Source of the DNA: an uncultured Bacteroidaceae bacterium
Lineage (GTDB): Bacteria > Bacteroidota > Bacteroidia > Bacteroidales > P3
DNA: 43,920 nt
Assembly: GCA_964616965.1 (NCBI GenBank)
Contig: CAZTVH010000002.1
Location: forward strand, 1 to 43,920
Direction: 5' to 3'
Part shown: positions 4,213-32,003 of the stretch, piece by piece
How the letters are laid out: each line of letters starts with the position of its first letter
Position numbering within the stretch: the first letter of the stretch is position 1
The notes under the pieces: generated by a model
The model's input: only the letters and a program-made list of their open reading frames with translations
Told to the model about the DNA's origin: nothing
Database searches by the model: none
Program-made: the position numbers and the translations under genes

Positions 4213-5310
4213 CTATTTAACGATAAGTTCCAAGACCCTGTTTACGTCCTCTTCAGACAATTCGTGATGCATCGGAAGGCAGATGACTTCGTTTGCAATT
4301 CGCGTGGCAGTCGGTAGGTTTTCTGTGGCAGCACTCGGCAAGCCACGATAAGTGCTGAACGTACTGATAAGAGGATAGAAATATCGGCGGCTCATAATAC
4401 CTTGTTCCCGCATCTTGAAGAATAGCTCATCACGAGTCATGCCATACTCGTCAGCATTGACAAATATTGGGAAATAGCTATAGTTGTGCTTCACGCCTGG
4501 CATATCGTCAAAGAATCGAATTCCTTTCACTGGACGAAGAGCCTCACGGTAGCGTATTGCCACACGGTGGCGCGACTCAATAGCAGAATCAATCTGGCGG
4601 AGACACAGCAAACCAAAAACGGCCCTCACCTCGTCCATCTTGCTATTGATACCGGGAGCTATAACTTCCGTCTCACTTTCGAAACCAAAATTCTTGAGAT
4701 AGTCAATACGCTGTTTGGTCGATGGATCGTGCATTACCATAGCACCACCCTCTATCGTATTGAACACTTTGGTGGCATGGAAACTCAAAGTAGAAATGTC
4801 GCCATACTCTAAGATAGACTTCCCATCTACTTCGACACCGAAACAATGGGCAGCGTCGTATATCACTTTCAGCCCGTATTTGTCTGCAATTTGCTGGATA
4901 CGGACTATGTCGCACGGTTTCCCATAACAGTGAACGGGCATGATGGCAGTTGTTCGAGGGGTGATGGCAGCCTCAATCTTGTCGGGATCCATGCCGCAAT
5001 TGCTAGGGTCGATGTCAACGAAGACGGGTTTCAGACCATTCCACCAAATGCTATGGGTGGTGGCCACAAAGCTGTAGGGGGTCGTTATCACCTCACCACT
5101 AATTCTCAATGCCTGCAGAGCAGTGAGCAATGGTAGCGTACCGTTGGTGAAGAGGCTGATATACGGTACCTTGAGATAGGTGCAAAGAGCCGCTTCTAAT
5201 TGCTGGTGGAACTGCCCGTTGTTGGTAATCCACTTGCTCTCCCAAACCTTTTTCAACATCTGGGTGAACTCGTCCAAATCTGGCAGCAGAGGTGTGGTGA
5301 CGTTCATCAT
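4213..5310 (-). CDS. DegT/DnrJ/EryC1/StrS-family PLP-dependent sugar aminotransferase
   Basis: 365 aa. SFHATKVFNTIEGGAMV contains the PLP-lysine motif, and the family-typical N-terminus is WITNNGQFHQQLEAAL. Last gene of the locus. Confidence 0.85.
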   Translation of the reverse strand: MMNVTTPLLPDLDEFTQMLKKVWESKWITNNGQFHQQLEAALCTYLKVPYISLFTNGTLPLLTALQALRISGEVITTPYSFVATTHSIWWNGLKPVFVDIDPSNCGMDPDKIEAAITPRTTAIMPVHCYGKPCDIVRIQQIADKYGLKVIYDAAHCFGVEVDGKSILEYGDISTLSFHATKVFNTIEGGAMVMHDPSTKQRIDYLKNFGFESETEVIAPGINSKMDEVRAVFGLLCLRQIDSAIESRHRVAIRYREALRPVKGIRFFDDMPGVKHNYSYFPIFVNADEYGMTRDELFFKMREQGIMSRRYFYPLISTFSTYRGLPSAATENLPTATRIANEVICLPMHHELSEEDVNRVLELIVK

Positions 5311-8099: not shown

Positions 8100-8151
8100 C
8101 GTCGAATAATAATTGAATGGTGAAAAGAAATGAAACTACCTGGGCGGAATA

Positions 8152-8931
8152 TTAATCCTTAGGCTTCAAATAGCCGAAAATTGTAACGATAAAAGTCAGT
8201 GTCGAAACACCTATCGATAGCCATGAGGCGAAATTCCTTGCCTCACGGCGGGGAGTATCCTTAGTGTAGTTTTGAGTGATGATGAAATCGTTCTGTTGCA
8301 ACATAAAGAAAGGGTCCTGAAACACCGAAGAAGAGCGAGGGTCGAGATACCTCATCACCATCTTGCCGTCTACTTCGCGCATCACGGCAATCTTGTTGCG
8401 GCTGGTATAGGCGTTCAGTCCGCCCGCCAAGGCTAATGCCTCCAAGAAGGTGCATCGCTCGTTGCTGATAGTGATAGCCTTGCCGCCCTCGGCACCTAAG
8501 AAGAAAATCTTGAAGTTGGAGAATCGTACCACCACCACCGCGTCGGTTAGCATCCCATTGGCAATCAAAAGGTGGCTGATGGTATCCTGCAATTCCAGAC
8601 GAGTCATACCCGACACATGGATTGCACCCAGTACCGGGAACTGGATATTGCCATTCACATCCACCAGATAGGCTCCACGGCGATAGCTAGCCATGTTATT
8701 CGTCGAGAACGAACTGAGGTTAAAGGGCTTTGCCTGTACCTCGTCCGAGGAGAAGACGAAAATGTCCAACTCGTCGTAGGGGCAGATATGTGCCTGAAAC
8801 GCATTTTCGAGTTCGATTTGGGTGCCATGACGCATATCCTGTAGATAGTTCACCTCGGCAGGTGTGAGACAGGAACTCAAAAGCAACCCAGATAACAAAG
8901 AAATGAATAGTAACTTGTACACTCTTTTCAT
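8152..8931 (-). CDS. wza: Outer-membrane polysaccharide export lipoprotein (Wza/OPX family)
   Basis: 259 aa. Lipoprotein signal LLLSSC. Poly_export-like region is NYLQDMRHGTQIE...DELDIFVF. SLBB-like segment and C-terminal hydrophobic helix WLSIGVSTLTFIVTIFGYL. Confidence 0.8.
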   Translation of the reverse strand: MKRVYKLLFISLLSGLLLSSCLTPAEVNYLQDMRHGTQIELENAFQAHICPYDELDIFVFSSDEVQAKPFNLSSFSTNNMASYRRGAYLVDVNGNIQFPVLGAIHVSGMTRLELQDTISHLLIANGMLTDAVVVVRFSNFKIFFLGAEGGKAITISNERCTFLEALALAGGLNAYTSRNKIAVMREVDGKMVMRYLDPRSSSVFQDPFFMLQQNDFIITQNYTKDTPRREARNFASWLSIGVSTLTFIVTIFGYLKPKD

Positions 8932-9868: not shown

Positions 9869-11068
9869 TCAAAGTGACTTATTAATTCTGTCGACAATTT
9901 GTTGGGAAGCATTACCTTCACCATATGGGTTAGACACCTTACTGATTTCGTTGTAATAGTCCTCATTCTCAATAAGACGGCTCACTTCGCTTATTATGAG
10001 ATTATAATCTGTGCCAACAAGCTTCACCGTGCCCGCATCAAGGGCTTCGGGACGTTCGGTAGTGTCTCGCATTACCAGGACTGGCTTACCCAAGCCAGGT
10101 GCCTCCTCTTGTATTCCACCACTGTCTGTAAGCACCAAATAGCTCTTCTCCATCAAACAGACGAATGCAATGTACTGGAGCGGCTCGATAAAGAAAAAGT
10201 TGGGGTAAACCGAAAGGTCTTCTCCAAACACCTCATGGATAGGTCTGCGGACATTCGGGTTAAGATGCATCGGATAAACAAAATCCACATTGGGATACAT
10301 CCTCGACAAATCTTTCATGGCGGTTAACATGTTGATAAACCCTTCACCGAAATTCTCTCTTCGGTGACCCGTAATCAACACCAGCTTGCGGCCTGCCAAG
10401 CAGTCGTCTACAACACCCGTCTCACTCCCCATGCCACTTATTCGTCCTATGTCATAACCTGCTGCAGCAAGTATCCTTTTTTGCTCTTCGGCAAGAGCCT
10501 TATCCTTCTTTAGTTTATCCACAACCATAAGAAGGGCATCAATGACCGTATTACCCGTCACTACAATCCTCTTTTCATCCACATTCTCATCAATGAGATT
10601 TTGTCGGTTGAGAGTGGTCGGTGCAAAATGGTATGTGGCAATACGTCCCGTTATCTGGCGGTTCATCTCCTCCGGCCAAGGACTATAGATATTGCGTGTA
10701 CGAAGACCTGCTTCGACATGTCCGACAGGTATTTGTTGATAGAACGCTGCCAATGCGGCTGCGGTACTGGTAGTGGTATCGCCGTGCACCAACACCACAT
10801 CAGGCTGCGTCTGTTTCAACACATCGCGCATTCCGAGCAATACCCGCGTAGTTACATCATATAGGTCTTGCCCCGGCTTCATAATATTCAAATCGTAGTC
10901 GGGTTTCACTTCGAAAATCTTCAACACCTGATCAAGCATCTCTCGATGCTGCCCTGTCACACAGACTGTCGTTTCAAAGTCATTAGGATACTCTTTAAAC
11001 TTTCTCACTAACGGACACATCTTAATGGCTTCGGGTCTTGTGCCAAAGACTATCATAACCTTTTTCAT
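9869..11068 (-). CDS. wecB: UDP-N-acetylglucosamine 2-epimerase (non-hydrolysing)
   Basis: 399 aa. Motifs MIVFGTRPEAIKMCPLV, HVEAGLRT and LVLTDSGGIQEEAPGLGKPVLVMR. It carries an extra Gly/Ser-rich insertion, ISGMGSETGVVDD. Confidence 0.92.
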   Translation of the reverse strand: MKKVMIVFGTRPEAIKMCPLVRKFKEYPNDFETTVCVTGQHREMLDQVLKIFEVKPDYDLNIMKPGQDLYDVTTRVLLGMRDVLKQTQPDVVLVHGDTTTSTAAALAAFYQQIPVGHVEAGLRTRNIYSPWPEEMNRQITGRIATYHFAPTTLNRQNLIDENVDEKRIVVTGNTVIDALLMVVDKLKKDKALAEEQKRILAAAGYDIGRISGMGSETGVVDDCLAGRKLVLITGHRRENFGEGFINMLTAMKDLSRMYPNVDFVYPMHLNPNVRRPIHEVFGEDLSVYPNFFFIEPLQYIAFVCLMEKSYLVLTDSGGIQEEAPGLGKPVLVMRDTTERPEALDAGTVKLVGTDYNLIISEVSRLIENEDYYNEISKVSNPYGEGNASQQIVDRINKSL

Positions 11069-11078
11069 CGTCTACTAC

Positions 11079-12302
11079 TTAGATGTGGTACGTTCCTTCT
11101 ATTGGGCAGATATTATGACAATCCAAAATGACTTTCCCCTTCAGCTTATCCCAATTCTTCAAGATATGACTGTGCTTCACCATTATCACCACCATATCCA
11201 CTTCTTCCACAAACAGGTCGAAATCAAGAATTTGGTTGGGTGCCACAGCCTTATCGGTAAAGAACGGGTCGAAACTCTTCAACGGATTGGCAAGGTGGCG
11301 TTCCTGAACTCCAAGTAGCTGCAGGGTTGGGCTCTCACGTATATCATCCACATTCTCTTTGTATGTAATACCATAAAGGCCTACTCGGCTGCAATCCGTG
11401 ATACCTTGCTGGCGCATGATTTCGTATATCCGTTCCAACACAAAGACCGGCTGGGTATCGTTTGTTTTCATCGACTCATTTATCACGTTGGCAAGTTGTG
11501 GATAGTCGCCCACCAAGAACCAGGGGTCAACACTGATGCAATGCCCCCCCACACCAGGTCCGGGCTGAAGGATGTTCACACGGGGGTGCATATTGCAAAT
11601 ACGGATTATCTCATACACATCCATATTGTCATGCCGACAAATACGGGCCAACTCATTTGCAAAAGCGATGTTCACCGCACGGAAAGTATTCTCTACGACC
11701 TTGGTCATTTCAGCTGTGCGGATATCGGTGACAACTATCTCTCCCTGACAGAACGAAGCATAGCACTGACGGACACGCTCCCCCACCTCACGGCTGTCTG
11801 CGCCAATCGTCCTATTGTTGTGTATCAACTCGTACAGCATATTGCCAGGGATGATGCGTTCTGGAGCATGGACAAGGTGCAGGTCTTCCCCTATTTTAAA
11901 ACCTTTGGATTCAATCACAGGCCTTACAAACCTGTCTATCGTTCCCGGAGAGATGGTCGACTCTATCACCACTACACTCCCTTTCATACACACCTTCATC
12001 ACCTCACTCACCGCTGCCACCACATAGCTCGCATCCACCTTCTTCGAAAACTTATCATACGGGGTCGGAACAGACACTATATACATATCCGTCTTCTGGT
12101 ATTCTGTCGTAAACTTGATTCCCGCTTTGACAGCCGATGAATACAGTTCAACCAAGCCTTCTTCTTTGAAAGTGGTGTTACCCGCATTTAGCATCGCTAC
12201 CAACTCCTTGCTATAATCCGTACCCACCACTTCCAGCCCATGCGATGCCATCATGAGGGCCGTTGGGAGGCCGATATATCCTAATCCTATTACGTTAATC
12301 AT
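11079..12302 (-). CDS. wecC: UDP-N-acetyl-D-mannosamine dehydrogenase
   Basis: Start revised to ATG 12302 ([19 protein letters not shown] Rossmann motif). This forms an ATGA overlap with the upstream stop. Catalytic-Cys region is [16 protein letters not shown]. The ORF-track start at 12380 adds 26 implausible residues. Confidence 0.9.
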
Positions 12303-12832
12303 TGTCTGTATTTTATTATTCGAGCAGGATTTCCTGCAACTACTGCGTATGGTGGCACGTCGTGCGTGACAACACTGCACGCCCCTATTACGGCACCATC
12401 ACCGATTGTTTTAACATTGGATAGAATTGTTACACGTTCTGCAATCCACACATCGTTCCCTATTGTCAGACTCGTTTTTGGCCGTGAACCTTGTTGGCCA
12501 ATCGACTGCAACTTATCCATAAAGATATGTCCACCCCCGACGACATGCACATCCCTTGCTATCATGGTATTATTGCCTACAACTAAAGAAGAGTTCGTGA
12601 TTCTGAAGTTGTCGCCAAGTCCTGACTTGTTCCCTATCGAAATATCGTTTTTGCCAAAATACACTCGCCTCTCGATATTAATCCATTTCCCTGAGCTGAC
12701 AAACAAAACCTTACATATCCTACCCCGTATTCTACGACACAGCTCACCCATCACAGGGAACCGGCTGGTCGGTAGAAATTGGGCAAAGGTATAGTACAAT
12801 ATGAATGCTATCTTCTTCATATTATTGCTCAT
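12299..12832 (-). CDS. Left-handed beta-helix (hexapeptide-repeat) sugar acyl/acetyltransferase
   Basis: 177 aa. Hexapeptide repeats and C-terminal [31 protein letters not shown]. Confidence 0.8.
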
Positions 12833-13820
12833 TCAATATCTTGTCTACAATGTCGAAGACCTCTTTCTGAACATGGGCACTCCTCTCCACTGAGCCATTT
12901 CCACGTTTTGCAGCCTTTACATACTGGTATATCTCTTCGGGATTTCTCGATTTGAATTCAAGTCCCTTTTTCTGTAACTCAATATCAACCGAAAGAAATA
13001 TCTCACTCGGAAAGAAACTGACTGCCGGCACCCCCATCAAGGCTGCTTCCCTTGCAAATGTCCCCGCTCCTGTCAGCACTGCCGTTGCATTATAGCAAAC
13101 GTCCAAGCCCGGCAGCGGGCCTTCAGGATACCACACATTAGAAAAGCCTTCGGCATACTTCTTCTCCTCTTCATATCTCGGCAAAAATAGGATGTTGTAA
13201 TCCCCAAACCGTTTGAACAGCTCAGGCACTATCGTCTTACTATCTTTCGGGACGTACGATGCCTTTAGGTTCTCTGGCCGCACCACTATGTAGTCTTTGA
13301 AGGGAAGCCGCTCAACAAAACCCTTGTCAGGCGTGAAGTCAGCTATATATATATCCTCCTTGAACCCGTCAAAGGTAAGTATTTGCGATTCTTTCAGCCG
13401 ATATTTGCTTTGTATTTTTTTATAGTCGAAATAGGTTGGGAAGATAAAGTAATTTCCTAGCCTGAACGAGAAGTATTTAAACGAAATATCGTTATCGCTA
13501 AACACGATAGACTTTTTCCCTCTTAGGAAGGCGATAGTAGACGTATAGTTACCCCCTAGCGATAGGGCATAGTCGAATTTGGGTACTTTGAACAGCAGTA
13601 TTACCATCCTGCTAAACAGCCCCATTACTTTTTTTATCCTACTCTTTCCTTTATAAGAGCCATATACTGTGGCATTGATACCCCTTTGTTTCAACAGTGG
13701 GATAGTTTCGGAGAAGTCGCGAGCAGTGATTATCAACTTATGATTCTTCTCCAAATGTTTGATAATAGGCGCTAATACTATTACATGAGGAGTATTAGTG
13801 ATATCTATCCAAATTCTCAT
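12822..13820 (-). CDS. DUF354-like protein (GT-B / epimerase-like fold, function unknown)
   Basis: 332 aa. The N-terminus [35 protein letters not shown] matches my recollection of DUF354 N-termini. AT-richer than neighbouring genes. Confidence 0.5.
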
Positions 13821-14377: not shown

Positions 14378-15778
14378 CTATTCACCATACTCATATTCCG
14401 ACACGCAGTAGTCTTCTTTCCCTGAAGGAAGGCAGGGTATCTCGTCGACAAACTCAAGGGAAATCTGCGAGCCCACAAAATGATTGCGATAGTTGGTGAC
14501 TATGTAGTCAAACTGCTCATGTGGCTCCGTTGGTTCTTTAAGCTTCAAGAGGATGGTTATGTCGCCCTGACAATCTTGTCGGATTTGGAATTTATCTATC
14601 TTGTTATACACCTTTTGATACTCCGCGTTGTGGTAATCCAACCCAGGATAAAACATCATGGGGAGCACGGTAGGCGAGATAGGCACCCCCTGCTTGTTAT
14701 ACATGAGCCTACCTGCCCTACCCATCACTTGGCCAACAAGCCTTGTCGGCCTACCGCACGAGCATTTGCCTTCTTTTATATACGCCATGTCGCCCACATG
14801 GTAGCGTAGGAAGGGGAATACATAGTTATTCAAATCGGTGGTGCAGACAAATCCTGTGGTGCCTGCAGGCAGGGGGACTCCTTGCTTGTCAGTGATTTCG
14901 ATTACGCACAAGTCCTCAGCTATATGCAGGCCCTCGCGCTTAGGGCATTCATGCGTGAGTATGCCTCCGTCGCTAGCTCCATACTCATCGTACACAGGTG
15001 CTTGAAACACCTCTTCCAGCTTGCGGCGGTATTCGGGCATCAGCACCTCCCCTGTAGTAAGCACCACCCTCACCGGCCTTACGGGCAGCCCTTGCTTCTC
15101 TATGTAACGTGCCAAGATATAGAGCGAGGAGCCATAGCCTCTCACGGCTTGGGGCTTCAGCCGCATAAATGCCTCGTAGTTGGCCTGCATAGCATGGTCT
15201 GAGACATCTGAGCTGCTGTACTTGAAGTTACGCATGATGACACGGTCGTAAAGGCCCTTGAGCGACAGCAACTGTTTGCGCTTGTTGATGGAGCTGCCTC
15301 CAAGCGAAAAAATCTTGTCGCCAAGGTGTAGGCCGTACCATTCCCATGCACAGAGGGTGGAGGCTTTCCAACTGCTCCATTCCTCTGAGTCGGTGCAGAA
15401 CTTGAGGGGTGTGCCAGTGCTACCTCCTGTGGACGACCTGCGGAGCCGATGGGGACTGACAGCGGTGCTGAACATGTCGTCATAGTTATCTCTGATTATC
15501 TGCTTGGTAAGGACAGGCAGCAACTGCAGGTCGTCACGCGACCGTATCTGCTCAGGCTTGATGCCGCAAGAATCGAACAGGCGTGTGTAGTATGGCACCG
15601 TCTCGTAGCAGTGCTTCACCAGCCGTTGGAGCTTGCGGTCCTGCAGGTCGCGCAATTCCGCCTCGGTGAGCCTGTCGTTACGACGCATCTCCTTGAGCTT
15701 GGCCACTACGCTACTCCCATATACCAAGTCGCCTATTGGCAGGAATAGATAACGGTCTAAATAGTTATAGAGTGTCAT
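14378..15778 (-). CDS. CapK / phenylacetate-CoA-ligase (PaaK, F390-synthetase)-like adenylate-forming enzyme
   Basis: 466 aa. N-terminal LQDRKLQRLVKHCYETVPYYTRLF and the AMP-binding loop SSTGGSTGTPLKF. Confidence 0.75.
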   Translation of the reverse strand: MTLYNYLDRYLFLPIGDLVYGSSVVAKLKEMRRNDRLTEAELRDLQDRKLQRLVKHCYETVPYYTRLFDSCGIKPEQIRSRDDLQLLPVLTKQIIRDNYDDMFSTAVSPHRLRRSSTGGSTGTPLKFCTDSEEWSSWKASTLCAWEWYGLHLGDKIFSLGGSSINKRKQLLSLKGLYDRVIMRNFKYSSSDVSDHAMQANYEAFMRLKPQAVRGYGSSLYILARYIEKQGLPVRPVRVVLTTGEVLMPEYRRKLEEVFQAPVYDEYGASDGGILTHECPKREGLHIAEDLCVIEITDKQGVPLPAGTTGFVCTTDLNNYVFPFLRYHVGDMAYIKEGKCSCGRPTRLVGQVMGRAGRLMYNKQGVPISPTVLPMMFYPGLDYHNAEYQKVYNKIDKFQIRQDCQGDITILLKLKEPTEPHEQFDYIVTNYRNHFVGSQISLEFVDEIPCLPSGKEDYCVSEYEYGE

Positions 15779-16694
15779 ATATTGCCATGATTTTTCTGGC
15801 CACCTCGGTGGTGGTCAAGCCTAACGAAATGATTCTTTCGCGTCCCGCAGTGCGGCCACCGAAGGCGAGAGCCGAACTTATGCCTTGGGCAAGAGCCTTC
15901 GCATCGCCGTATGGCACCACATAGGTACCCGGCAGACGGCCTGTAACCCACTGCACGTCGCCCACGTCAGTTGTCACAATGGGCAACCCGCACGCCATGG
16001 CCTCCTTTATCACATTGGGGGAACCCTCCATCACCGATGTGAGCAGCAGCACGTCGGCGGCACACATATATTCTACCACCTGGCTGTGGCTTCGGTCGAA
16101 CACGGGGATGAGTTCTACATTGGCATCGTCCAACAGGGCTACAGCCCGTTGCGCCAACGGGTAATTCTTCTCGCTACGCGAAGGGTTCGAGCACCAAATG
16201 ACGTATTTCTTCCCCTCCTCGAAACCACACCGCTCACGAGCGACACCGTGGTCTATCAATACAAACTGTTCAAGATTGACCCCATTGGGCACCACCGGCA
16301 GGCTCATTCCCAACTGGTCGGCTGTTCGCTGCGACTTCACGAGGGTGGCATCCCACACATGCTTGATAAAAAAACTGACCCAACGTTTCTTGAACGACGG
16401 TTGGGGAAAACTGCCCAATATGGACACCACCACTTTCGTCTTAGTGCAACATGTAGCCAACGACGCCACCAAGCCACACACCGAGTAGTGGGCATGGACC
16501 ACGTCGGGACGCTCCTTGCGGACCAACTTGCGAAGGCTGCCTATTGCTTTGGCATACGCCTTCCACCCACGGCCCTTGATGGGAAAAAGCACCATGTCTA
16601 GCCCCTCACGCCGTAGCGACTCGTACTGCGAGCCGACAAAGGCACTTACTGTACCCACCGCCTTGTTGCCACTGGCTACAAATACTACTTTCAT
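15765..16694 (-). CDS. GT-B glycosyltransferase, family 4-like
   Basis: I prefer ATG 16694 (MKVVFVASGN), 2 nt after the upstream stop. The ORF track starts at 16721. C-terminal EGSPNVIKEAMACGLPIVTTDVGD is typical of GT4. Confidence 0.8.
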   Translation of the reverse strand: MKVVFVASGNKAVGTVSAFVGSQYESLRREGLDMVLFPIKGRGWKAYAKAIGSLRKLVRKERPDVVHAHYSVCGLVASLATCCTKTKVVVSILGSFPQPSFKKRWVSFFIKHVWDATLVKSQRTADQLGMSLPVVPNGVNLEQFVLIDHGVARERCGFEEGKKYVIWCSNPSRSEKNYPLAQRAVALLDDANVELIPVFDRSHSQVVEYMCAADVLLLTSVMEGSPNVIKEAMACGLPIVTTDVGDVQWVTGRLPGTYVVPYGDAKALAQGISSALAFGGRTAGRERIISLGLTTTEVARKIMAIYDTL

Positions 16695-16696
16695 CT

Positions 16697-17710
16697 CTAT
16701 TTCAGATTGTTCCAATACCATTCGCAGGCCTGCTCGAACCCACTCAGCGCGTCGTATTTGGGGCGGTAGCCCAGCACCTGCTGCGCCTTAGCGATAGAAG
16801 CCTGAGAGTGAGGAATGTCGCCCGGTCGGTTTGTCCTATACACGGGCTCTATGTCGGCAATACCGGCATCGTACCGCGCCAGATTGCTACGCAGGCAGGC
16901 AAACAGCTGATTGAGCGTAGTGTTGCCTCCGTATGCCACATTGAACACCATGTCGATAGGGGCGTTTGCAGGCAAGGTCTTATTATATAGTTCTGCCTGC
17001 TGGAAAAGGGTTTCGGAAGGGACGCTGGCGGCAAGCTCGTTGGCCTGGATAACATTGTCGATATAGGTAAAGTCGCGCGAGTAGCTGCCGTCGCCGTTGA
17101 TAAAAGGCTGCTGATGGTTGATAAGTGCCTTCACCCAAAGAGGTATCACAGCCGCATAGGCCCCGTTAGGGTCCTGTCGACGACCAAAAACGTTGAAATA
17201 GCGCAACCCAACGGTCTCTATTCCGTAGAGATTGGAAAAGACATTGGCATACAGTTCGTTCACATACTTGGTGATAGCGTATGGCGAAAGCGGACGCCCG
17301 ATATTATGTTCGGTCTTGGGCAACAGCTTGCTATCCCCGTAAGTAGACGAACTGGCCGCATACACAAAACGGTGCACACCCGCATCGCGTGCCGCCACCA
17401 ACATGTTGAGGAACCCATCGATATTGTTGCTGTTCGTGTTAATCGGGTCATTGATGCTTCGTGGCACACTGCCCAAAGCTGCCTCATGCAGCACCACATA
17501 GGCACCCTCCACCACTCTGCGACAAGTGTCCAAATCACGGATATCACCCTCCACAAAATGGAAATTGGGCATAGACAGCAGGGGCTCTATGTTGCGGCGA
17601 AAGCCTGTCGACAAATTGTCCAAACAGGTCACTTCATACCCCTTCGACACAAAATGCTCGCACAAGTTAGAACCAATAAACCCGGCTCCGCCAGTAATCG
17701 TAATTTTCAT
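16697..17710 (-). CDS. SDR-family UDP-HexNAc / UDP-HexNAcA C4-epimerase (WbpP/TviC-like)
   Basis: 337 aa. Motifs TGGAGFIGSNLCEHF, FVEGDIRD, AASSSTYGD and YAITKYVNE (YxxxK). Confidence 0.8.
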   Translation of the reverse strand: MKITITGGAGFIGSNLCEHFVSKGYEVTCLDNLSTGFRRNIEPLLSMPNFHFVEGDIRDLDTCRRVVEGAYVVLHEAALGSVPRSINDPINTNSNNIDGFLNMLVAARDAGVHRFVYAASSSTYGDSKLLPKTEHNIGRPLSPYAITKYVNELYANVFSNLYGIETVGLRYFNVFGRRQDPNGAYAAVIPLWVKALINHQQPFINGDGSYSRDFTYIDNVIQANELAASVPSETLFQQAELYNKTLPANAPIDMVFNVAYGGNTTLNQLFACLRSNLARYDAGIADIEPVYRTNRPGDIPHSQASIAKAQQVLGYRPKYDALSGFEQACEWYWNNLK

Positions 17711-17907
17711 CCTTTCTTATCTATTATTCCTGTAATAACCTATTAAAAACCTATCATCCCTTCCACATCCATTGAACTGTGATTGGTGCATTATGAATTG
17801 TGAATTGACCAATAAAAACGGTACTCTTTAAACTAAAAAGTAAAAACTAAAAACTAAAACTTTTTCAATTTTTAATCTTCAATTTTCATTTTTCATTCCT
17901 CAAAGCT

Positions 17908-18028
17908 TCTTCCGTTCTCTGCTCCTTATCCGCTCGTACTCTGCTCCATATCCGCTCCAAGAAGCGGAAAACAACCTTAGAAGATGTGAGAATCATGAAG
18001 ATACAGTAGGAAGCCGCTTGAAACGGCA
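17908..18028 (+). repeat. Intergenic repeat family, copy 1 (orientation A)
   Basis: Contains TCCGTTCTC, CTCTGCTC, the hairpin tccgct-ccaaga-agcgga (17951-17968) and GTAGGAAGC. Ungapped, 49 of 65 positions are identical to the reverse complement of copy 2 (hand alignment). Confidence 0.7.
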
Positions 18029-18177
18029 TGAACCGATAAACGCTAGAAAAAATGAGTGTATGGGTTGGCTGAGAAGAAAGCCTATAGCCGAGGATAGGGG
18101 TCGGGAAGCTTTATAGTGGGCTGTACGTCAGCTTTTACTTGTCGAACTATAGAAATTAAGAGTGGGCAGCGGCAAGG

Positions 18178-19137
18178 CTATCTCCCTTGGAACTCGATGA
18201 TACGCCTGTCGAGGATGCTGCCTTTCTCGAAATTGTGACAGCCACGGAGTACGTCGTTCTCAAGAGGGCGGTCTTCGATAAGGAAGTCGACATATTTAAT
18301 AAATTCGGCACTAAGTGTCTCTGTGGCAGTTTTCCAGAAAAGCGAAGGGGTGTGGTCGACAACATAGTGTGTGATACCGTCTATCGTGTATGTGGGGTGC
18401 TCGATAGAAGTGGGGACACTGGTTTCGACACCGCCATTGCGGTCGCACGAGACATCGATGATGAGGGCACCCCGCTTCATGCGTTGTAGGTCGCGGCGAT
18501 AGATGATGTGGTCGCGTCGCGAGGTGTCCCAAAGAATGGCATTGACCACTACGTCGAAGTCGCCCAGCTCAAGCTGGAAAAGCCGTTCGGTCTTGCGGTC
18601 GTACTGCCTAACCTCGGCCCCCATATAGTTGAGTGTCTTGATAGCCCCACGGGCTATGTTGCCACGTCCTAGCACGGCCGCACGGGTGTTGTAGGGGAAG
18701 ATGCCGTGGCACATGTAGGCGTGGAAGACAGCGGCCTCGCCAGCTATCTCGTTGTTGCGCCAAAAGCTGTGGCGGCCATTTTCGTACATGTCCTCCCAGG
18801 CGAAGGAAGTGAGCCTGCGGGAGATGATTTTGTCGGTGATGTCGCGATTCTGCACTGCATGCACCCACCCAAAAATGGTTTGTCCGTCCAACGACTCTAA
18901 GTATTCGGCATCGCCAATTTTGGGGTCGGCTACAATGTCCATTTGGAGTATCTGGTCGCGAGTGGCGACATTGACACCTCCCCGCCTGTAGTCGTCGTCG
19001 CTGTAGCCCAGCACGTCGCCGTAGCCCGTTTCAATCCATATCTGGCCGGGATGGCGCAACTGCGCTATGTGGCCGGGAATCAGCGTGCGACGCCTTTCGT
19101 TTTCCTTGTGGGATATGGGCAGACCAACTGTTTTCAT
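18178..19137 (-). CDS. Alanine dehydrogenase/PNT-family enzyme resembling N5-(carboxyethyl)ornithine synthase (opine-type synthase)
   Basis: 319 aa. N-terminus MKTVGLPISHKENERRRTLIP and NAD motif VLGRGNIARGAIKTL. Length and architecture fit CEOS (about 313 aa) rather than AlaDH (about 370 aa). Confidence 0.55.
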   Translation of the reverse strand: MKTVGLPISHKENERRRTLIPGHIAQLRHPGQIWIETGYGDVLGYSDDDYRRGGVNVATRDQILQMDIVADPKIGDAEYLESLDGQTIFGWVHAVQNRDITDKIISRRLTSFAWEDMYENGRHSFWRNNEIAGEAAVFHAYMCHGIFPYNTRAAVLGRGNIARGAIKTLNYMGAEVRQYDRKTERLFQLELGDFDVVVNAILWDTSRRDHIIYRRDLQRMKRGALIIDVSCDRNGGVETSVPTSIEHPTYTIDGITHYVVDHTPSLFWKTATETLSAEFIKYVDFLIEDRPLENDVLRGCHNFEKGSILDRRIIEFQGR

Positions 19138-19197: not shown

Positions 19198-20595
19198 TTA
19201 GAAGAGTCCGCGCGTACCGAGTTTGAAGAAGGCCCATGCGAAAGCCATGATGGGGACCACCCAGTACCATATCTTCACCCACCGATAGTTTCGAGCCGAA
19301 ACAAGCGAGACACCGTACGCCGCCATCACCAGCAGTATGGGCACACCTGGCAAAAGAAACCTTTCAGCATTGGCAAATCCACTCATTGAGATGATACCCA
19401 GATAGGCCACCTCGAACGCACCCATGAGCGAGAGGTCGCGCCAGTTCTTGGAAAGGAACAGGGCATCGAATAGTGCGATAAGAACGAATATACCCAAGAA
19501 GTTACGCACATAGTTACCACCGTGTATCAACTGTTGGTTGTACTGCTCGTCGACATCCACCATAGTGGGGAAGGGAAGGACGAAAATCATTGGGGCCATC
19601 ACAGCACCGGTGGCATATTCAGCCCATTTATATCCTTTAATCATCTGTTGGGTACGCTTCGCCGACTGGTTGTCGGAACGGGTTTCCCACAAGCCCCTTG
19701 CCTCGTTGGCGATGGTACCGCCAGCCAATACTGCCAAGCCTATCACTGCCCAGGTGATGAGCACCACACGGTTCCAGTTGCCCACCAACCTGTTGGTGGT
19801 GAATATCAGAGCCGAAAAGATGGCAAAGACGACTGCGGCACCCAGCACGTTTCGGAAAAAGAAGATGCTGACCACCAACAATGCCTCAATGACGACATCC
19901 CACAGCAACAGCTTGCCTTTGTGCAGCATGCTGTCGGCCTTGTTCAAGGCGGCTACGGTCAGAAATATCATCTCGGTCTCCTTCAGGTGCAGACCACAAT
20001 ACAGGATAAGGTTGGGCATCAGACAGCAGAAAATACCCGACATACGAGCCACCTCCTCACTCAAATTGCGTTTCGCCATCTGATAAACCATCACACACAT
20101 CCATGAACTGATTAGGCACTTTATCACGCGGACAAGATAGATATTAGGGCCGAAGATATTGTATAGTACTGCCAGGTAGACAGGGTAGCCGCGGTCGCCA
20201 ATGGAGCGTGTCTTGAGATAGTCGAATGCTGCATCCCATCCCGACTCGTGATACCACATGGCCTCGTTATGATAGCCAAACGAGTCACTGGCACCAAACT
20301 CAAAGGGGATGCCCGTTTTGACGAGGTAGAAGAAGTAGGCAAAGGTGGTCCATACCAATCGCAAGACTAATGCCGTGAAAAAGAGTTTCCTGACATACTT
20401 GGCCTCCTCCAGCTCGCCCCATTTAAAGGTGTATCGGTTAGACAACAGGAAGAAAAGCAGCACCCAGATGATACCTACGACGATATAAACGGGCTTCATC
20501 ATGTGGCTATAGAACACTGCCGACACTGCGACTAGCGACGCGAGGTATATAAGAATAGCCCTAGTGGAGAACTGTTTGGGAAAATAGGGAATCAT
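19198..20595 (-). CDS. Polytopic membrane protein, GT-C fold (PMT_2/ArnT-like) glycosyltransferase candidate
   Basis: 465 aa with at least 10 hydrophobic segments. The first loop has acidic/aromatic SDSFGYHNEAMWYHE. The segment VRVIKCLISSWMCVMVYQMAKRNLSEEVARMSGIFCCLMPNLI follows the PMT_2 pattern. Confidence 0.5.
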   Translation of the reverse strand: MIPYFPKQFSTRAILIYLASLVAVSAVFYSHMMKPVYIVVGIIWVLLFFLLSNRYTFKWGELEEAKYVRKLFFTALVLRLVWTTFAYFFYLVKTGIPFEFGASDSFGYHNEAMWYHESGWDAAFDYLKTRSIGDRGYPVYLAVLYNIFGPNIYLVRVIKCLISSWMCVMVYQMAKRNLSEEVARMSGIFCCLMPNLILYCGLHLKETEMIFLTVAALNKADSMLHKGKLLLWDVVIEALLVVSIFFFRNVLGAAVVFAIFSALIFTTNRLVGNWNRVVLITWAVIGLAVLAGGTIANEARGLWETRSDNQSAKRTQQMIKGYKWAEYATGAVMAPMIFVLPFPTMVDVDEQYNQQLIHGGNYVRNFLGIFVLIALFDALFLSKNWRDLSLMGAFEVAYLGIISMSGFANAERFLLPGVPILLVMAAYGVSLVSARNYRWVKIWYWVVPIMAFAWAFFKLGTRGLF

Positions 20596-23430: not shown

Positions 23431-24254
23431 TTATTAGTGTCCGCGTACAGGTCTACATGGCATTGCAGGGTTTCGCCATAGACGTGACGGGCTTCGGGGA
23501 TGCGGTTTTTGCGATAAAACTCCTTGTCTATCGGAAGTGTCACGGTGCAATACTGAGCCTTTGATATCTGTGAGGCTATTCCGCCTGCATGGAGGCGGTA
23601 CACCCCGCCCACGAAGGCAAACAGGTAGCCCTTCCCAGCTTTGAGCAGATGATATATCTCATGCTGGTCTCGGTAATACTTGTATCGTTTCTGCCATTCA
23701 GGACTAAACATAGCAGTGCGGAAAAGCATGGTGAGCGGCTGTGTTATCCAGTCCTTGAAAAACATTTCTATGGTGACATCCACCCCCTGCTCTCCTCTCG
23801 CAAAAAGAGGACCACAGAGGTCTGGCTCAAATTGCCCGGTTTGCTCATTGTATCGTTGGCAACGATGGAAACAGATGGAGTATTCCGGATGGCTTTCCAT
23901 AAAGTCTACCTGCTTTTGCAGTTTCAACGGGTCGGTCCAATAATCGTCGCCCTCGCACGAGGCAATATATTTGCCTCTGGCACGGGAATAGTTGAACACT
24001 ATGTCCATCCGTCCCCTGTATCCATGCGTGAATCTGTTTTCTTTTTCATACAGGGGGAACACCTTGTCTGGATACTTTGCCTCATACTCGCGCAGGATAT
24101 CGTCTGTTCCGTCGGTCGAAGCGTCGTCGTGAACCAGTATCTCAAACGGGAAGTCAGTCTTCTGCATTAAGAACCCGTCCAGACATTGGCGAACAAAGCG
24201 TGCGTGGTTGTAGGTCAGGCAGCAGATACTCACTAAAGGTGTCGTTTCATTCAT
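23343..24254 (-). CDS. GT2 glycosyltransferase
   Basis: VSICCLTYNHARFVRQCLDGFLMQ, VHDDASTDGT and CEGDDYW. Confidence 0.85.
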   Translation of the reverse strand: MNETTPLVSICCLTYNHARFVRQCLDGFLMQKTDFPFEILVHDDASTDGTDDILREYEAKYPDKVFPLYEKENRFTHGYRGRMDIVFNYSRARGKYIASCEGDDYWTDPLKLQKQVDFMESHPEYSICFHRCQRYNEQTGQFEPDLCGPLFARGEQGVDVTIEMFFKDWITQPLTMLFRTAMFSPEWQKRYKYYRDQHEIYHLLKAGKGYLFAFVGGVYRLHAGGIASQISKAQYCTVTLPIDKEFYRKNRIPEARHVYGETLQCHVDLYADTNKWKALRYALEQLFVTRGHKTFWHNMKRIF

Positions 24255-25455
24255 ATTCTATCACCACCTTTCTGTCAATCTCATCTTGTAGCGATTCCAT
24301 TGCCTCACGGCTATCGGTGCAAGCCACATAGAACCCAATCCTATTGCCCCCATCCGTAGGCCGACAAATCTTGTCGCCCGGCTTGAAGTTCATCTGCCAA
24401 TAGAGCACTTCTTTGCGTGAGTCCAGCAGGTCGGTACCCCTGACCCTTGCCACAGTCCCCCCGGCTTCGGTTGTGTCGAAAAACTTCAGTACCGCCACTT
24501 TCCCGTTGCGCAAACTCTGAGGATCGATAGTCTCATTTACCTCACCCTTCACAAACATGTCTATCAGCATCCCATAGTTGTCCAAGCCAGTGAGAGCAGG
24601 CACTATGTGCGACGAGATGAGGTTGCCACCCCCGCGTGCTCCGATTTCCAGCAGGTAGAACTCGCCATCTTCATACCTATATTCCGCATGGGTGAAGCCG
24701 AAAGGCAGGCCGGAAAGTTCGACAAACTTATTGTTCACCTCTCTCAGCCGGTCATAGTCGTAGCGGGGGTTGTCGTACGAGAAAAAGAGATAGCTGTCCA
24801 AATTACGGTTGTAATCGAACTGGTTCTTTTCCGAAATGGCAAGACACACATGGCCCTGAGGCAAACGTATCCCGTCGACAGAGAACTCTGACCCAGAAAT
24901 AAACCGTTCGCAAATGACAGCCTTCCGATGATGGGAGTAGCCTATCGAGGCATCGAACAGCCGACGCAGCTGCCCCTCGTCCTCAATGGTGAAAACTCCT
25001 CTGCTGCTGTTGGCATCTATTGGTTTGATAATCATTTTGTGATGCAACGAGTGGAAAAAGTCAACTGCTTCATCCACCGTTTCGCAAACCCTATAGGCCG
25101 GATAGGGCAGACCGTGGTCTCGACAGAAATCCCTCATCAGCGACTTGTCGGTATACAGGCGGGCCATAGGTTCCGTCTGGGAGGGGAGGCCTAACTGTGA
25201 GGAGACAAAAGCCAAGGTCGGGGTTGCGATATCGCATTGGTCCGACATCACTGCCACCACCTCCAGCCGCCTAGCCGCCTCCAAGACTGCATCGCGGTCA
25301 AGGATGTCGGCATACACAATCTCATCGGCATACTTAAAAGCCGGAGCGTCGGGATAGGGATGCAGCACGGCTACACGGTAACCCCGTTCTTTCAGTTTCT
25401 TAATGAGCGGTATCTGCCACACAGTACCCGGCAGAACCATAACAGTCTTACACAT
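24247..25455 (-). CDS. ATP-grasp family ligase
   Basis: 402 aa. MIIKPIDANSSRGVF, ICERFISGSEFSVDG and HAEYRYEDGEFYLLEIGARGGG. Confidence 0.8.
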   Translation of the reverse strand: MCKTVMVLPGTVWQIPLIKKLKERGYRVAVLHPYPDAPAFKYADEIVYADILDRDAVLEAARRLEVVAVMSDQCDIATPTLAFVSSQLGLPSQTEPMARLYTDKSLMRDFCRDHGLPYPAYRVCETVDEAVDFFHSLHHKMIIKPIDANSSRGVFTIEDEGQLRRLFDASIGYSHHRKAVICERFISGSEFSVDGIRLPQGHVCLAISEKNQFDYNRNLDSYLFFSYDNPRYDYDRLREVNNKFVELSGLPFGFTHAEYRYEDGEFYLLEIGARGGGNLISSHIVPALTGLDNYGMLIDMFVKGEVNETIDPQSLRNGKVAVLKFFDTTEAGGTVARVRGTDLLDSRKEVLYWQMNFKPGDKICRPTDGGNRIGFYVACTDSREAMESLQDEIDRKVVIEYE

Positions 25456-27621: not shown

Positions 27622-28647
27622 TTATACCACTTTGTGAGAATAGGCGGGGACAAACTCAAATTTTTTCCCTTCTTTCAGCTGTTTGGCTGTTATTTCAAAG
27701 AGCTCTTCCGAAGGATTTATGACATTGATTTTGCATACTTCTCCCATTAATACATCGGGGTCGACACCGTATTCTGACGACACTTTTTCCAAAAGTCCCG
27801 TGAAGGAGTCGTGGAAGTTGACCATCCCGACGTTTATCTCTCGTTTGGTACTGCCTTTGAGCAGGAGGTTCCCCACCACCTGCTCGGCCAGCTCCGCCAA
27901 CTGAAGGGCGTTGCAGCCCTGCGGCATGATGCGGGCCTTCTGACAGATGGCAATCATCGACTCCAATTGGGCGTTGCCCGCTCCGCGTCCGAGGCCGCGC
28001 AGAGTCGCGTCGACCATCTCGGCTCCCGCCTGCAAGGCTGCCAGACTATTGGCATTGGCCAATAGGAGGTTGTTATGCCCGTGGAAACCAACCGAGATAT
28101 CGTAGAACTCTTTAATTGCATGCACATACCCTGCCACCTGGTCGGGCAGCATTCCTCCTGCAGAATCAACCAAATAGATGCAGTCGGCACCAGCACCCGC
28201 GATGCCTTCGGCTGTCTTCACCAAATGGTAACGGCTGACGGCGTATGTCTTCATCAGGTTGCAGCAGACATAGAGGCCTAGCGATTTGGCATAACTGATA
28301 CTGTCGAACGTCTTTTCAATCTCGGTGGAGTTGCCCCCTACACGAACAAAGGAGCCCCCGTTATCCTTAAACCATTTCAAGTCGTCCTTTGTGCCACCAC
28401 AACCGGGTATAAAGAACATGCCTATATGCGACTCGCCTTTGCATGGCATACATATGCGCATGAAATCGCTGTCGTCAAGGGGATGCTCCCCCACACGGTA
28501 TGAACCTAGGCCAAGTGTGTTGCCAATCTCAATATACTTGATACCGGCTGCCGACAACTCAGTGACAATCTTACGCAGCGTTTCAGCCTCCCAATGGTTA
28601 TGGGTCACATAGCCTCCGTCGCGTATGGTGCAATCTAGTATATTCAT
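27622..28647 (-). CDS. HMGL-like / DRE-TIM metallolyase (4-hydroxy-2-oxovalerate aldolase-like, pyruvate-utilising)
   Basis: 341 aa. ILDCTIRDGGY and VGFHGHNNLLLANANSLAALQAGAEMVDATLRGLGRGAGNAQLE closely follow the DmpG/BphI-type motifs. Confidence 0.75.
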   Translation of the reverse strand: MNILDCTIRDGGYVTHNHWEAETLRKIVTELSAAGIKYIEIGNTLGLGSYRVGEHPLDDSDFMRICMPCKGESHIGMFFIPGCGGTKDDLKWFKDNGGSFVRVGGNSTEIEKTFDSISYAKSLGLYVCCNLMKTYAVSRYHLVKTAEGIAGAGADCIYLVDSAGGMLPDQVAGYVHAIKEFYDISVGFHGHNNLLLANANSLAALQAGAEMVDATLRGLGRGAGNAQLESMIAICQKARIMPQGCNALQLAELAEQVVGNLLLKGSTKREINVGMVNFHDSFTGLLEKVSSEYGVDPDVLMGEVCKINVINPSEELFEITAKQLKEGKKFEFVPAYSHKVV

Positions 28648-31057: not shown

Positions 31058-31061
31058 ATTG

Positions 31062-32003
31062 CTATCTTTCTGCCCGCATAGGGTTGTGTAAAAAATCGTT
31101 ATACGCCAAACGGATGCCCTCGTCAAGTTCGGTCTTGTAGGTCCAACCCAATGCCGTAGCCTTGCTCACATCGAGCAGTTTGCGCGGAGTACCATTGGGG
31201 CGGCTCGCATCCCATCGTATCGTGCCCCCATATCCCACTATATGTGCCACCAGCTCGGCAAGTGCCTTGATGGTGATTTCTTTGCCGGTGCCGGCATTGA
31301 CGGTCTCGTCGCCACTATAGTGGTTCATCAGGAAGACACAGAGATTGGCAAGGTCATCCACATAGAGAAACTCGCGCAGCGGCGACCCGTCGCCCCAGCA
31401 CACCACCTCTTCTACTCCCTGAACCTTAGCCTCGTGGAAACGGCGTATCATGGCGGGGAGCACATGGCTGTGTTCGGGATGGTAATTGTCGTTAGGGCCA
31501 TATAGGTTTGTGGGCATGACGCTTATGTAGTCGGTACCATACTGACGGTTGAGGTATTCGCAGTATTTCAGCCCCGATATCTTTGCGAGGGCGTAGGCCT
31601 CGTTTGTCTTTTCCAACTCGGAGGTCAGCAGGCAGCTCTCCGGCATAGGCTGTGGAGCCAGACGGGGATAGATGCAGCTCGACCCCAAGAACTCAAGTTT
31701 CTTGCACCCGTTGCGCCATGCCGCATGGATGACGTTCATCTCCAACACCATATTCTCATACATGAAGTCGGCCAACGCACTCTGGTTGGCAACGATGCCG
31801 CCCACCTTGGCAGCGGCGAGAAACACATACTCAGGTTTTTCTTCCTCGAAGAATTGCTCCACCGCCTCTTGCCGTGTCAGGTCCAGCTCTGCGTGTGTGC
31901 GCGTTACGAGGTTGCTGTAGCCCTGCCGCTGGAGTTCTCTCACTATGGCAGAACCCACCATGCCCCGGTGGCCAGCCACATATATCTTTGAGTCTTGGTT
32001 CAT
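31062..32003 (-). CDS. fcl: GDP-L-fucose synthase (GDP-4-keto-6-deoxymannose 3,5-epimerase/4-reductase)
   Basis: 313 aa. [26 protein letters not shown] and GSSCIYP. Confidence 0.92.

Follow-up and report, generated by a model that had tools for sequence, protein, structure and literature searches.

A dehydrogenase gene of the N5-(carboxyethyl)ornithine synthase-like branch in a polysaccharide locus of a Bacteroidaceae bacterium: a candidate opine-forming enzyme for glycan decoration

The CEOS-like gene and its product

The DNA described here, called the window throughout, is the 43,920-nt stretch comprising positions 1 to 43,920 (forward strand) of contig CAZTVH010000002.1, assembly GCA_964616965.1, of an uncultured Bacteroidaceae bacterium. 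It carries a run of co-oriented minus-strand genes, extending from about 4213 to 40031, which encodes glycosyltransferases, WecB, a WecC-like dehydrogenase, a TviC-like epimerase, Wza, Wzc, a Wzm/Wzt pair, and a sugar-phosphate transferase, and also comprises GDP-fucose and Galf genes and the genes of a CapK/PaaK-like adenylating enzyme and an ATP-grasp ligase. Within this run lies the gene considered here, an ATG-to-stop open reading frame (ORF) at 18178..19137 coding for a 319-aa protein related to the N5-(carboxyethyl)ornithine synthase (CEOS) of Lactococcus lactis. An earlier annotation made without database searches (the sequence-only reading) had taken the product for an opine-type dehydrogenase of a glycan locus, and the neighbours that it named, i.e., WecB, the WecC-like enzyme, the TviC-like epimerase, the CapK/PaaK-like enzyme, and the ATP-grasp ligase, are all present. 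On balance, we favour the view that the protein is a glycan-dedicated opine-forming enzyme, a reductive carboxyethylase of the CEOS-like branch recruited to surface-polysaccharide biosynthesis.

The protein belongs to the AlaDH/PNT superfamily, named after L-alanine dehydrogenase (AlaDH) and the transhydrogenases, as had been claimed. Both Pfam domains score above their gathering scores (AlaDh_PNT_N, E 1.9e-13; AlaDh_PNT_C, E 1.9e-23), the GxGxxA-type motif GRGNIA occupies residues 157-162, and the AlphaFold2 model (pLDDT 92.7) finds its closest fold in the PDB in the AlaDH of Mycobacterium tuberculosis complexed with NAD+ and pyruvate (Rv2780, PDB 2vhx; TM 0.87). Since no CEOS-type structure has been solved, the structure search cannot separate CEOS from AlaDH. 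The gene is of full length, its product aligning over 100% with 120 homologues of 319-330 aa (74-100% identity). Its comparison with the copy in locus L099 (89% amino-acid and 75% nucleotide identity) gives a dN of 0.077 with synonymous sites saturated, so that a dN/dS ratio was not computable; the gene is under purifying selection. The G+C content of the gene is 0.55, against 0.50-0.56 in its surroundings and 0.50 in the whole window, and by this comparison the composition gives no hint that the gene was recently transferred. The window sequence is also present in bovine gut metagenomes. In one run of a bovine metatranscriptome, contigs cover 18074-18442 and 18492-18889, and for this reason the gene is probably transcribed in vivo, the evidence being contigs only, with DNA carry-over possible.

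The phylogeny, built by neighbour-joining only (114 sequences, 100 bootstraps), comprised the annotated L. lactis CEOS and its relatives, two AlaDHs, the Escherichia coli PntA, and representatives of 50%-identity clusters obtained as HMMER matches in 1.8 billion proteins. Only 80 of these representatives reach E <= 1e-30, hence the CEOS-like family is of modest size. The window protein falls into a 92-member superclade together with the Lactococcus CEOS, split from AlaDH and PntA at 97/100 bootstrap. Inside the superclade two clades are supported at 100/100, one composed of Lactococcus, Enterococcus, and Vagococcus proteins and the other, referred to as the 'long' clade, of proteins of about 371 aa, including ones from an E. 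coli plasmid and from Streptomyces. Lying outside both, the window protein stands for a third lineage, with a length of about 319 aa, the deeper branching order in the superclade not being fixed by neighbour-joining. Judged from its sequence, it is a member of the CEOS-like branch, and the automatic name "N(5)-(carboxyethyl)ornithine synthase" covers at least three lineages with different genomic roles. NCBI and JGI apply this name to homologues 80-82% identical to the window protein; NCBIfam has no CEOS-specific model, therefore the public name does not derive from the NCBIfam models searched.

The clustering with alanine dehydrogenases or transhydrogenase alpha subunits that would have spoken against the sequence-only reading was not found, neither in the tree nor in the model scores. 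With the alaDH equivalog TIGR00518 the window protein scores 104.5 bits against a cut-off of 391.85; the L. lactis CEOS (61.6 bits) and the other CEOS-annotated proteins likewise fall below the cut-off, while a control AlaDH of a Bacillus plasmid passes it at 459 bits. This, together with the 97/100 split, led to the rejection of membership among the L-alanine dehydrogenases. With the two PntA models the protein obtains 37.8 bits (cut-off 444.4) and 57.5 bits (cut-off 383); it is soluble-sized, has no membrane domain, and no pntB-like gene neighbours it in the window, hence a transhydrogenase alpha subunit was rejected as well. Octopine, alanopine, and strombine dehydrogenases (the Octopine_DH family) and saccharopine dehydrogenase share the type of reaction, a reductive condensation of a 2-oxo acid with the amine of an amino acid, but the resemblance of the octopine-type enzymes to the window protein is functional and not one of membership, which was rejected, the protein having no Pfam match to Octopine_DH at E <= 1. 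No saccharopine dehydrogenase was found among the PDB sequence matches or the top 50 fold matches.

The closest characterised relative of this type, the L. lactis CEOS (EC 1.5.1.24), shares with the window protein the superfamily, the superclade, a size of ca. 310-320 aa, the deletions relative to AlaDH, and the catalytic set of residues. The two are nevertheless separate lineages with 29% identity over 86% of the query; the window protein has about 30 additional C-terminal residues, its motifs NNE, SCD, and VDHTPS are replaced in CEOS by KNS, AAD, and VPNTPS, and its gene is located inside a polysaccharide locus, while that of the Lactococcus enzyme stands alone. The CEOS-like layout proposed in the sequence-only reading therefore holds for the superclade, the format, and the catalytic residues, but does not extend to orthology or, as it seems, to a cofactor site of the NADPH type.

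In an alignment with two AlaDHs, PntA, and CEOS, R16, K73, H93, and D232 of the window protein occupy the pyruvate-binding and catalytic positions of AlaDH, which we take to be R15, K75, H96, and D270 of the M. tuberculosis enzyme, and this Arg/Lys/His/Asp set is conserved in nearly all sequences of the CEOS-like clades and of the AlaDHs. Compared with AlaDH, both the window protein and the Lactococcus CEOS lack the loop before GxGxxA and about 40 residues of the NAD domain; the identity of the window protein to AlaDH is 23-25%. At the end of the second Rossmann strand, following GRGNIA, it has D180-R181-K182, and D-R-K or D-R-R is found at this position in 118 of 119 close homologues. Residue 180 is D or E in AlaDH, Y or T in the Lactococcus clade (Y-R-K in CEOS itself), and T or S in the 'long' clade, whose T/S-R-R motif is NADPH-like. 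From D180-R-K, the cofactor of the window protein may be NADH, or the preference may be dual; the site looks NADH-like rather than NADPH-like. Three further positions are common to the window protein and the 'long' clade and differ in the Lactococcus clade: 129-130 (N-E versus S-F/Y), 231 (C versus A), and 261-262 (D-H versus N/P-N).

Homologous loci and known glycan chemistry

Loci of homologues were collected from one genome per species; 80 were returned, with CEOS-like proteins of 48-80% identity, and 79 entered the neighbour counts. ORFs were called in the loci and clustered by BLASTP, and the recurrent families were named with Pfam. The sources comprise Bacteroidales, Capnocytophaga, many Clostridia, Massilia, Listeria, and Virgibacillus, as well as Lentisphaerae, Fibrobacteria, Opitutales, Actinomyces, and Mycoplasmatota. 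Genes for amide ligases adjoin the CEOS-like gene more often than any others: a TupA-like ATP-grasp protein (PF14305) is adjacent in 24 loci, a 'sugar-transfer-associated' (ST) ATP-grasp protein (PF14397) in 12, a RimK-like ATP-grasp protein in 8, and a CapK-like adenylating enzyme in 5, the latter being found at a distance of up to 8 kb in 11. Altogether, an amide ligase gene is adjacent in 42/79 loci and lies within three genes in 50/79, while 5000 permutations of the gene order inside the individual loci yield 10.9 +/- 2.6 adjacent cases and never more than 21. Of the 50 ligase-positive loci, 24 carry a gene for a UDP-sugar 6-dehydrogenase; the 29 ligase-negative ones have none (Fisher p = 1.5e-6). 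Co-location of the CEOS-like gene with an amide ligase and with glycan assembly genes, the organisation of a glycan decoration cassette, is thus found across the family.

The type of ligase (TupA, ST, RimK, or CapK) switches among close CEOS-like relatives in the protein tree. In the subclade of the window protein the CapK-like gene is found at +3, or the genes of a hexapeptide transferase and a DUF354 protein are adjacent, and in the next branches a TupA, ST, or RimK gene is adjacent. One cluster representative, P0247, is a natural fusion of an ATP-grasp domain with a CEOS-like domain. Loci with 78-89% identical CEOS-like proteins keep the order of a whole module, composed of a GT2 glycosyltransferase, a 465-aa membrane protein, the CEOS-like protein, an epimerase, a GT4 glycosyltransferase, the CapK-like enzyme, a hexapeptide transferase, the DUF354 protein, a protein of about 250 aa, Wza, Wzc, and DegT.

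The CEOS-like module also occurs in other combinations, i.e., fused to NUDIX in P0227 and, in P0195, preceded by a 650-residue N-terminal part without a Pfam match. PGA_cap (CapA-like, PF09587) is encoded beside the CEOS-like and ATP-grasp genes in 13/79 loci (L021, L023, L026, L027, L034, L035, L037, L042, L043, L050, L052, L063, and L092), adjacently in 4, and several loci contain up to four ATP-grasp genes. The recurrence of PGA_cap together with multiple ATP-grasp genes may indicate that the side chains are short peptides and not single amino acids.

The members of the 'long' clade, annotated as CEOS or alanine dehydrogenase, come from Providencia rettgeri, Vibrio cholerae, Vibrio anguillarum, Aeromonas, Shewanella, Edwardsiella, and an E. 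coli plasmid. They resemble the window protein in being encoded in O-antigen or capsule loci, their own with an adjacent ATP-grasp ligase gene, ugd, and an epimerase gene, and in the NNE, SCD, and DH motifs absent from the Lactococcus clade (31-36% identity). They differ from it in their length of about 371 aa, with some 40 residues inserted behind the second strand of the nucleotide-binding domain, in the cofactor motif given above, and in forming a distinct clade (100/100).

In the E. coli plasmid NZ_AP027746.1 (L009, 159133-182962) the 'long'-clade gene is situated in a wza-wzb-wzc/wzx/wzy locus, directly after an ORF clustering with the RimK-like ligases and with an epimerase gene and ugd downstream. 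The plasmid, of the IncFIB/IncY type, comes from a human faecal E. coli, and its capsule-type locus is flanked by IS91, IS5, and ISAs1 transposase genes. Its CEOS-like protein is 99% identical to one of Aeromonas hydrophila, indicating a recent inter-genus transfer of the serotype locus; the other relatives are from Shewanella (87-88%), V. cholerae and V. anguillarum (78%), and P. rettgeri (77%), and further ones from Edwardsiella, Pseudoalteromonas, and Serratia. In P. rettgeri the gene order is cpxA, wzi, the RimK-like gene, the CEOS-like gene, wzx, a GT4 gene, a gene for a 273-aa protein, a GT2 gene, wzy, an epimerase gene, ugd, wza, and wzb. This content would fit a trisaccharide unit with an amino-acid-substituted GalA, as in the O14 antigen described below. 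The link to amide-linked amino-acid decorations, suggested in the sequence-only reading, is strengthened by the adjacency to ligase genes, the co-occurrence with uronic-acid genes, the ATP-grasp fusion, and the sister clade in O-antigen-type loci.

Shewanella fidelis has an O-antigen with carboxyethyl-lysine. The O14 antigen of Providencia rustigianii is composed of GalNAc-GlcNAc-GalA6(N-epsilon-carboxyethyl-Lys), with N-epsilon-(1-carboxyethyl)-L-lysine amide-linked to GalA (PMC10609480), and that of Proteus mirabilis O13 contains GalA6(R-carboxyethyl-L-Lys) (S4 table, PMC5560731). In P. mirabilis O14ab, N-(1-carboxyethyl)ethanolamine phosphate is found (cluster KY710694; S4 table, PMC5560731), which means that reductive carboxyethylation of glycans is not limited to the amines of amino acids. 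In Providencia alcalifaciens O35, alanopine acylates Qui4N (PMC10609480). As for the amide bond, Cj1438C, a TupA-like ATP-grasp domain, amidates the C6 carboxylate of GlcA in the capsule of Campylobacter jejuni (PMC11800379), and the general prediction for TupA-like enzymes of polysaccharide loci is that they add amino acids (PMC13419641). In the Cj1438 system of C. jejuni HS:2, the attached groups are serinol or ethanolamine, and a reductive carboxyalkylation step is absent; unlike C. jejuni, the window has no TupA-type gene, but a CapK-like enzyme and an ATP-grasp protein of the L-amino-acid ligase (LAL) type. Genes for amino-acid substituents are not discussed in the paper on Proteus O-antigen genetics (PMC5560731), and a full-text search of the literature yielded no paper tying a CEOS-like or AlaDH-like gene to a glycan locus and no gene assigned to the carboxyethylation step.

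Proposed reaction and alternative explanations

In the reaction that we propose, pyruvate would bind at the Arg16/Lys73 site, as in the family at large, and would form an imine with a primary amine much larger than ammonia, too large for AlaDH; hydride transfer from NAD(P)H, for which His93 and Asp232 are the presumed catalytic residues, would then convert the imine into an N-(1-carboxyethyl) secondary amine. The amine would most probably be the side-chain amino group of a diamino acid, e.g., L-lysine or L-ornithine, either of the free amino acid or of one whose alpha-amine already forms an amide with the C6 carboxylate of a hexuronic acid in the repeat unit. In the window this hexuronic acid may be ManNAcA produced by WecB and WecC, or GalNAcA formed through the TviC-like epimerase; the WecC-like enzyme is the predicted source of a hexuronic acid, most likely UDP-ManNAcA. 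A separate ATP-dependent ligase would join the alpha-amine of the amino acid to the uronic-acid carboxylate. In most related loci this role would fall to the TupA-, ST-, or RimK-type ATP-grasp protein, and in the window to the CapK/PaaK-like enzyme, encoded three genes downstream of the CEOS-like gene, or to the LAL-type ATP-grasp protein, encoded five genes upstream. We infer the keto acid, the amine (lysine or ornithine), the uronic-acid acceptor, and the cofactor, as well as the sequence of the ligation and alkylation steps and, for the window, the partner ligase, and our confidence in these specific substrates is lower than in the reading of the protein as a glycan-decorating opine synthase.

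Extended to the whole family, the proposal becomes more tentative, although we consider it a serious one. Opine-type amino acids may be put on the capsules and O-antigens of Bacteroidota, Bacillota, Proteobacteria, and other phyla, including abundant commensals of the rumen and gut, by a widespread cassette of two components, the CEOS-like enzyme as reductive carboxyethylase and an amide ligase of interchangeable type (TupA-, ST-, or RimK-type or CapK-like). The proteobacterial sister clade may then comprise the gene still missing for the N-epsilon-(1-carboxyethyl)lysine ('alaninolysine') found in O-antigens of Providencia, Proteus, and Shewanella. The CEOS family name in public annotation and the glycan chemistry are already known. 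What appears to be new is the systematic pairing of the CEOS-like enzyme with interchangeable amide ligases in polysaccharide loci across phyla and the gene assignment for carboxyethyl-amino-acid decorations that results from it, the CEOS-like gene being the best candidate yet for the enzyme that makes them. Carboxyethyl-type substituents of O-antigens, such as carboxyethyl-lysine on GalA, alanopine on Qui4N, and carboxyethyl-ethanolamine phosphate, have been described chemically for decades. If the proposal is true, a missing glycan-tailoring enzyme, directly testable, has been identified, serotype-specific charged, zwitterion-like epitopes become predictable from sequence, and carboxyethyl decorations should be frequent among the Bacteroidales and Clostridia of rumen and gut, about whose capsule chemistry hardly anything is known.

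Several observations weigh against this reading. In the window and its nearest relatives no ligase gene is adjacent to the CEOS-like gene, and the CapK-like gene of the window lies three genes away from it, across a spacer that probably divides transcription units. Loci L001, L017, and L018 have no sugar 6-dehydrogenase gene within +/-10 kb. Orthology with the characterised Lactococcus CEOS was rejected on the grounds of the 29% identity, the exclusion of the window protein from the 100/100 Lactococcus clade, and the clade-specific motif differences, and the amine or the keto acid may differ from those of that enzyme, since the conserved positions 129-130, 231, and 261-262 differ. No Proteus homologue is found among the named top matches of the sister clade. 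Finally, 29/79 loci have neither ligase nor glycan genes nearby, hence the CEOS-like family is not exclusively glycan-linked. These loci mostly form coherent subclades, i.e., Listeria/Carnobacterium, Clostridium akagii/acidisoli/Virgibacillus, and a Lachnospiraceae group. The neighbours of such stand-alone homologues, which resemble the solitary Lactococcus gene, were all singletons in the clustering, with no alternative conserved context.

The best surviving alternative, which we regard as unlikely, is that the enzyme makes a free opine, alanopine-like or carboxyethyl-lysine, whose carboxylate is activated by the CapK/PaaK-like enzyme and which N-acylates the amino sugar made by DegT, directly or via the hexapeptide acyltransferase. 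PaaK-family enzymes activate carboxylic acids, a DegT aminotransferase gene closes the locus, alanopine on Qui4N is documented (PMC10609480), and the tightest neighbours in the subclade of the window encode the hexapeptide transferase, the DUF354 protein, and the CapK-like enzyme, not an ATP-grasp protein. The lack of a uronic-acid dehydrogenase gene near L001, L017, and L018 also speaks for it. On the other hand, the strongest links across the family are those with ATP-grasp ligases of types associated with the amidation of uronic acids and with pairs of a UDP-sugar 6-dehydrogenase and an epimerase, and genes for WecB, WecC, and a TviC-like epimerase are present in the window itself.

The substrates of characterised CEOS are free amino acids, and the window protein might be a soluble metabolic enzyme of this kind, using free ornithine or lysine to form a compatible solute or to serve as a redox sink and merely residing in the locus with no glycan role. 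The plasmid genes of Lactococcus, Vagococcus, and Enterococcus sit among stress and metal genes, the homologues of the 29 loci mentioned above have no conserved neighbours, and the 467-nt spacer isolates the window gene on one side. This explanation is quite improbable, however, given the synteny inside polysaccharide loci, which persists in different phyla and as identity falls from 89% to about 50%, the ligase adjacency at four times the chance level, the existence of the ATP-grasp fusion, and the co-orientation of the gene with the upstream glycan gene for the 465-aa membrane protein, only 60 nt away.

Very improbable, in our estimate, is the alkylation of a glycan amine other than that of an amino acid, such as an amino sugar nucleotide or ethanolamine phosphate, or the use of another keto acid, e.g., 4-hydroxy-2-oxovalerate produced by the enzyme encoded at 27622-28647. 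The N-(1-carboxyethyl)ethanolamine phosphate of P. mirabilis O14ab (PMC5560731) and the residues near the active site that differ from the Lactococcus clade in conserved motifs are consistent with it, as is the presence in the same locus of this aldolase-like gene, whose product passes an NCBIfam subfamily cut-off, but the recurrent partner is an amide ligase of the amino-acid type, which such chemistry does not need, and the aldolase-like gene is located outside the conserved module. It is scarcely credible that the protein is an ordinary dehydrogenase of L-alanine (or another amino acid) providing the alanine of an alanyl substituent, or a stray domain resembling dI of a transhydrogenase: its best PDB matches in sequence and fold are AlaDHs, because no CEOS structure is available, D180 is AlaDH-like, and some databases label its relatives 'alanine dehydrogenase', while it fails the alaDH equivalog by a wide margin where the control passes, is split from AlaDH and PntA in the tree, is devoid of about 50 residues of AlaDH, and has neither a pntB partner gene nor a membrane domain, and alanine, being abundant, needs no dedicated gene.

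Other features of the locus

The coordinates of the CEOS-like gene, its motifs, and the surrounding features are compiled in Table 1.

Table 1. Features of the polysaccharide locus in the window
Feature	Position	Strand	Evidence
CEOS-like (opine-type) dehydrogenase, predicted NAD(P)H-dependent, 319 aa, AlaDH/PNT fold	18178..19137	minus	ORF, Pfam, tree, AlphaFold2 model
Dinucleotide-binding motif G157-R-G-N-I-A162	18652..18669	minus	sequence
Span with R16 (19090-19092), K73 (18919-18921), H93 (18859-18861), and D232 (18442-18444)	18442..19092	minus	alignment
Polytopic membrane protein, 465 aa, weakly GT-C/PMT-like, immediately upstream of the CEOS-like gene	19198..20595	minus	Pfam Glyco_transf_22, E 6.8e-05
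ATP-grasp ligase with L-amino-acid-ligase C-terminal domain, second amide-forming candidate	24247..25455	minus	Pfam LAL_C2 and ATP-grasp_4
AT-rich spacer between the CEOS-like and epimerase genes, 467 nt	17711..18177		GC 0.39 versus 0.50 in the window
SDR 4-epimerase, best match TviC (UDP-GlcNAcA 4-epimerase)	16697..17710	minus	NCBIfam, 352 bits (equivalog cut-off 760)
GT4 glycosyltransferase of the conserved module	15765..16721	minus	Pfam, synteny
CapK/PaaK-like adenylate-forming enzyme, candidate amide-forming partner	14378..15778	minus	NCBIfam PaaK and F390-synthetase matches, all under cut-off
Hexapeptide-repeat acyltransferase, 159 aa	13842..14321	minus	Pfam; adjoins the CEOS-like gene in L019, L021, and L027
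DUF354 protein	12822..13820	minus	Pfam PF04007; syntenic in the subclade of the window
WecC-like nucleotide-sugar 6-dehydrogenase	11079..12380	minus	NCBIfam NDP-sugar dehydrogenase, 410 bits (cut-off 190)
WecB, UDP-GlcNAc 2-epimerase	9869..11068	minus	Pfam Epimerase_2, E 1.8e-116
DegT-type sugar aminotransferase, end of the locus	4213..5310	minus	Pfam, E 1.4e-98

In the window, as in L001, L017, L018, and L099-L101, the epimerase gene is the next one downstream of the CEOS-like gene; its product may instead be a UDP-GlcNAc 4-epimerase of the WbpP type. The best PDB match of the CapK/PaaK-like enzyme is PaaK (4r1l, E 7e-29), and that of the LAL-type ATP-grasp protein an L-amino acid ligase (3vot, E 6e-16); the family of the latter is encoded at a distance of up to 8 kb from the CEOS-like gene in 5 loci, including the window, L018, L035, and L043. 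The DUF354 protein has no NCBIfam match, and a PDB sequence search with it returned only chance-level matches. With the model for UDP-ManNAc dehydrogenase the WecC-like protein scores 335 bits (cut-off 459). The listed GTG start of its ORF overlaps the upstream ORF of a hexapeptide transferase (12299-12832, minus strand) by 82 nt, and the true start is probably located downstream of this GTG, since the Pfam match begins at residue 28. The 465-aa membrane protein is syntenic in L001, L017, L018, L029, and L099, and the L099 copy has a weak PMT_2 match.

The spacer on the 3' side of the CEOS-like gene, pointed out in the sequence-only reading, indeed has exactly 467 nt and contains repeats, a 22-nt tandem repeat at 17913-17956 and short A/T repeats at 17830-17857, but no meaning can be demonstrated for it beyond the probable separation of transcription units. 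The equivalent gap is 60 nt long in 80%-identical loci, while in the 89%-identical ones it is an AT-rich sequence of 511 nt that does not align with the spacer of the window. The latter gives no Rfam match and has no further copy in the window, and promoter- and terminator-like sites around the CEOS-like gene occur at chance frequency only. On these findings, a conserved regulatory RNA and a mobile element defined within the window were rejected. The RNA contigs stop at 17770, about 60 nt upstream of the start of the epimerase gene, and at 18074, about 100 nt past the stop codon of the CEOS-like gene. The spacer is probably a variable boundary between transcription units and not a functional part of the finding.

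The A/T repeat AAACTAAAAAGTAAAAACTAAAAACTAA at 17827-17868 coincides with an assembly breakpoint in the DNA run X1, where the depth is 49 versus about 6. This spike, together with many loose ends leading into different sequences, indicates that the short motif is present at other places in that metagenome; the window contains a single copy of it.

At 27622-28647 (minus strand) a 341-aa HMGL-like protein is encoded, scoring 244.5 with the NCBIfam 4-hydroxy-2-oxovalerate aldolase subfamily model (cut-off 229). Such an aldolase-type enzyme could supply a 2-oxo acid for a non-sugar substituent or for the CEOS-like enzyme; ethers of 2,4-dihydroxypentanoic acid are found in Providencia O31 (PMC10609480). 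The co-oriented run also encodes two export routes (29819-31126, 37441-38310, and 5592-8931, minus strand), one an ABC transporter pair of Wzm and a Wzt with the carbohydrate-binding domain Wzt_C, and the other of Wza and a Wzc-like tyrosine kinase, so that either two glycan loci have been joined or the locus is a single hybrid one. Rfam matches the window at one place only, a tRNA gene at 42464-42551 on the plus strand, situated just beyond divergent genes at the far end of the locus.

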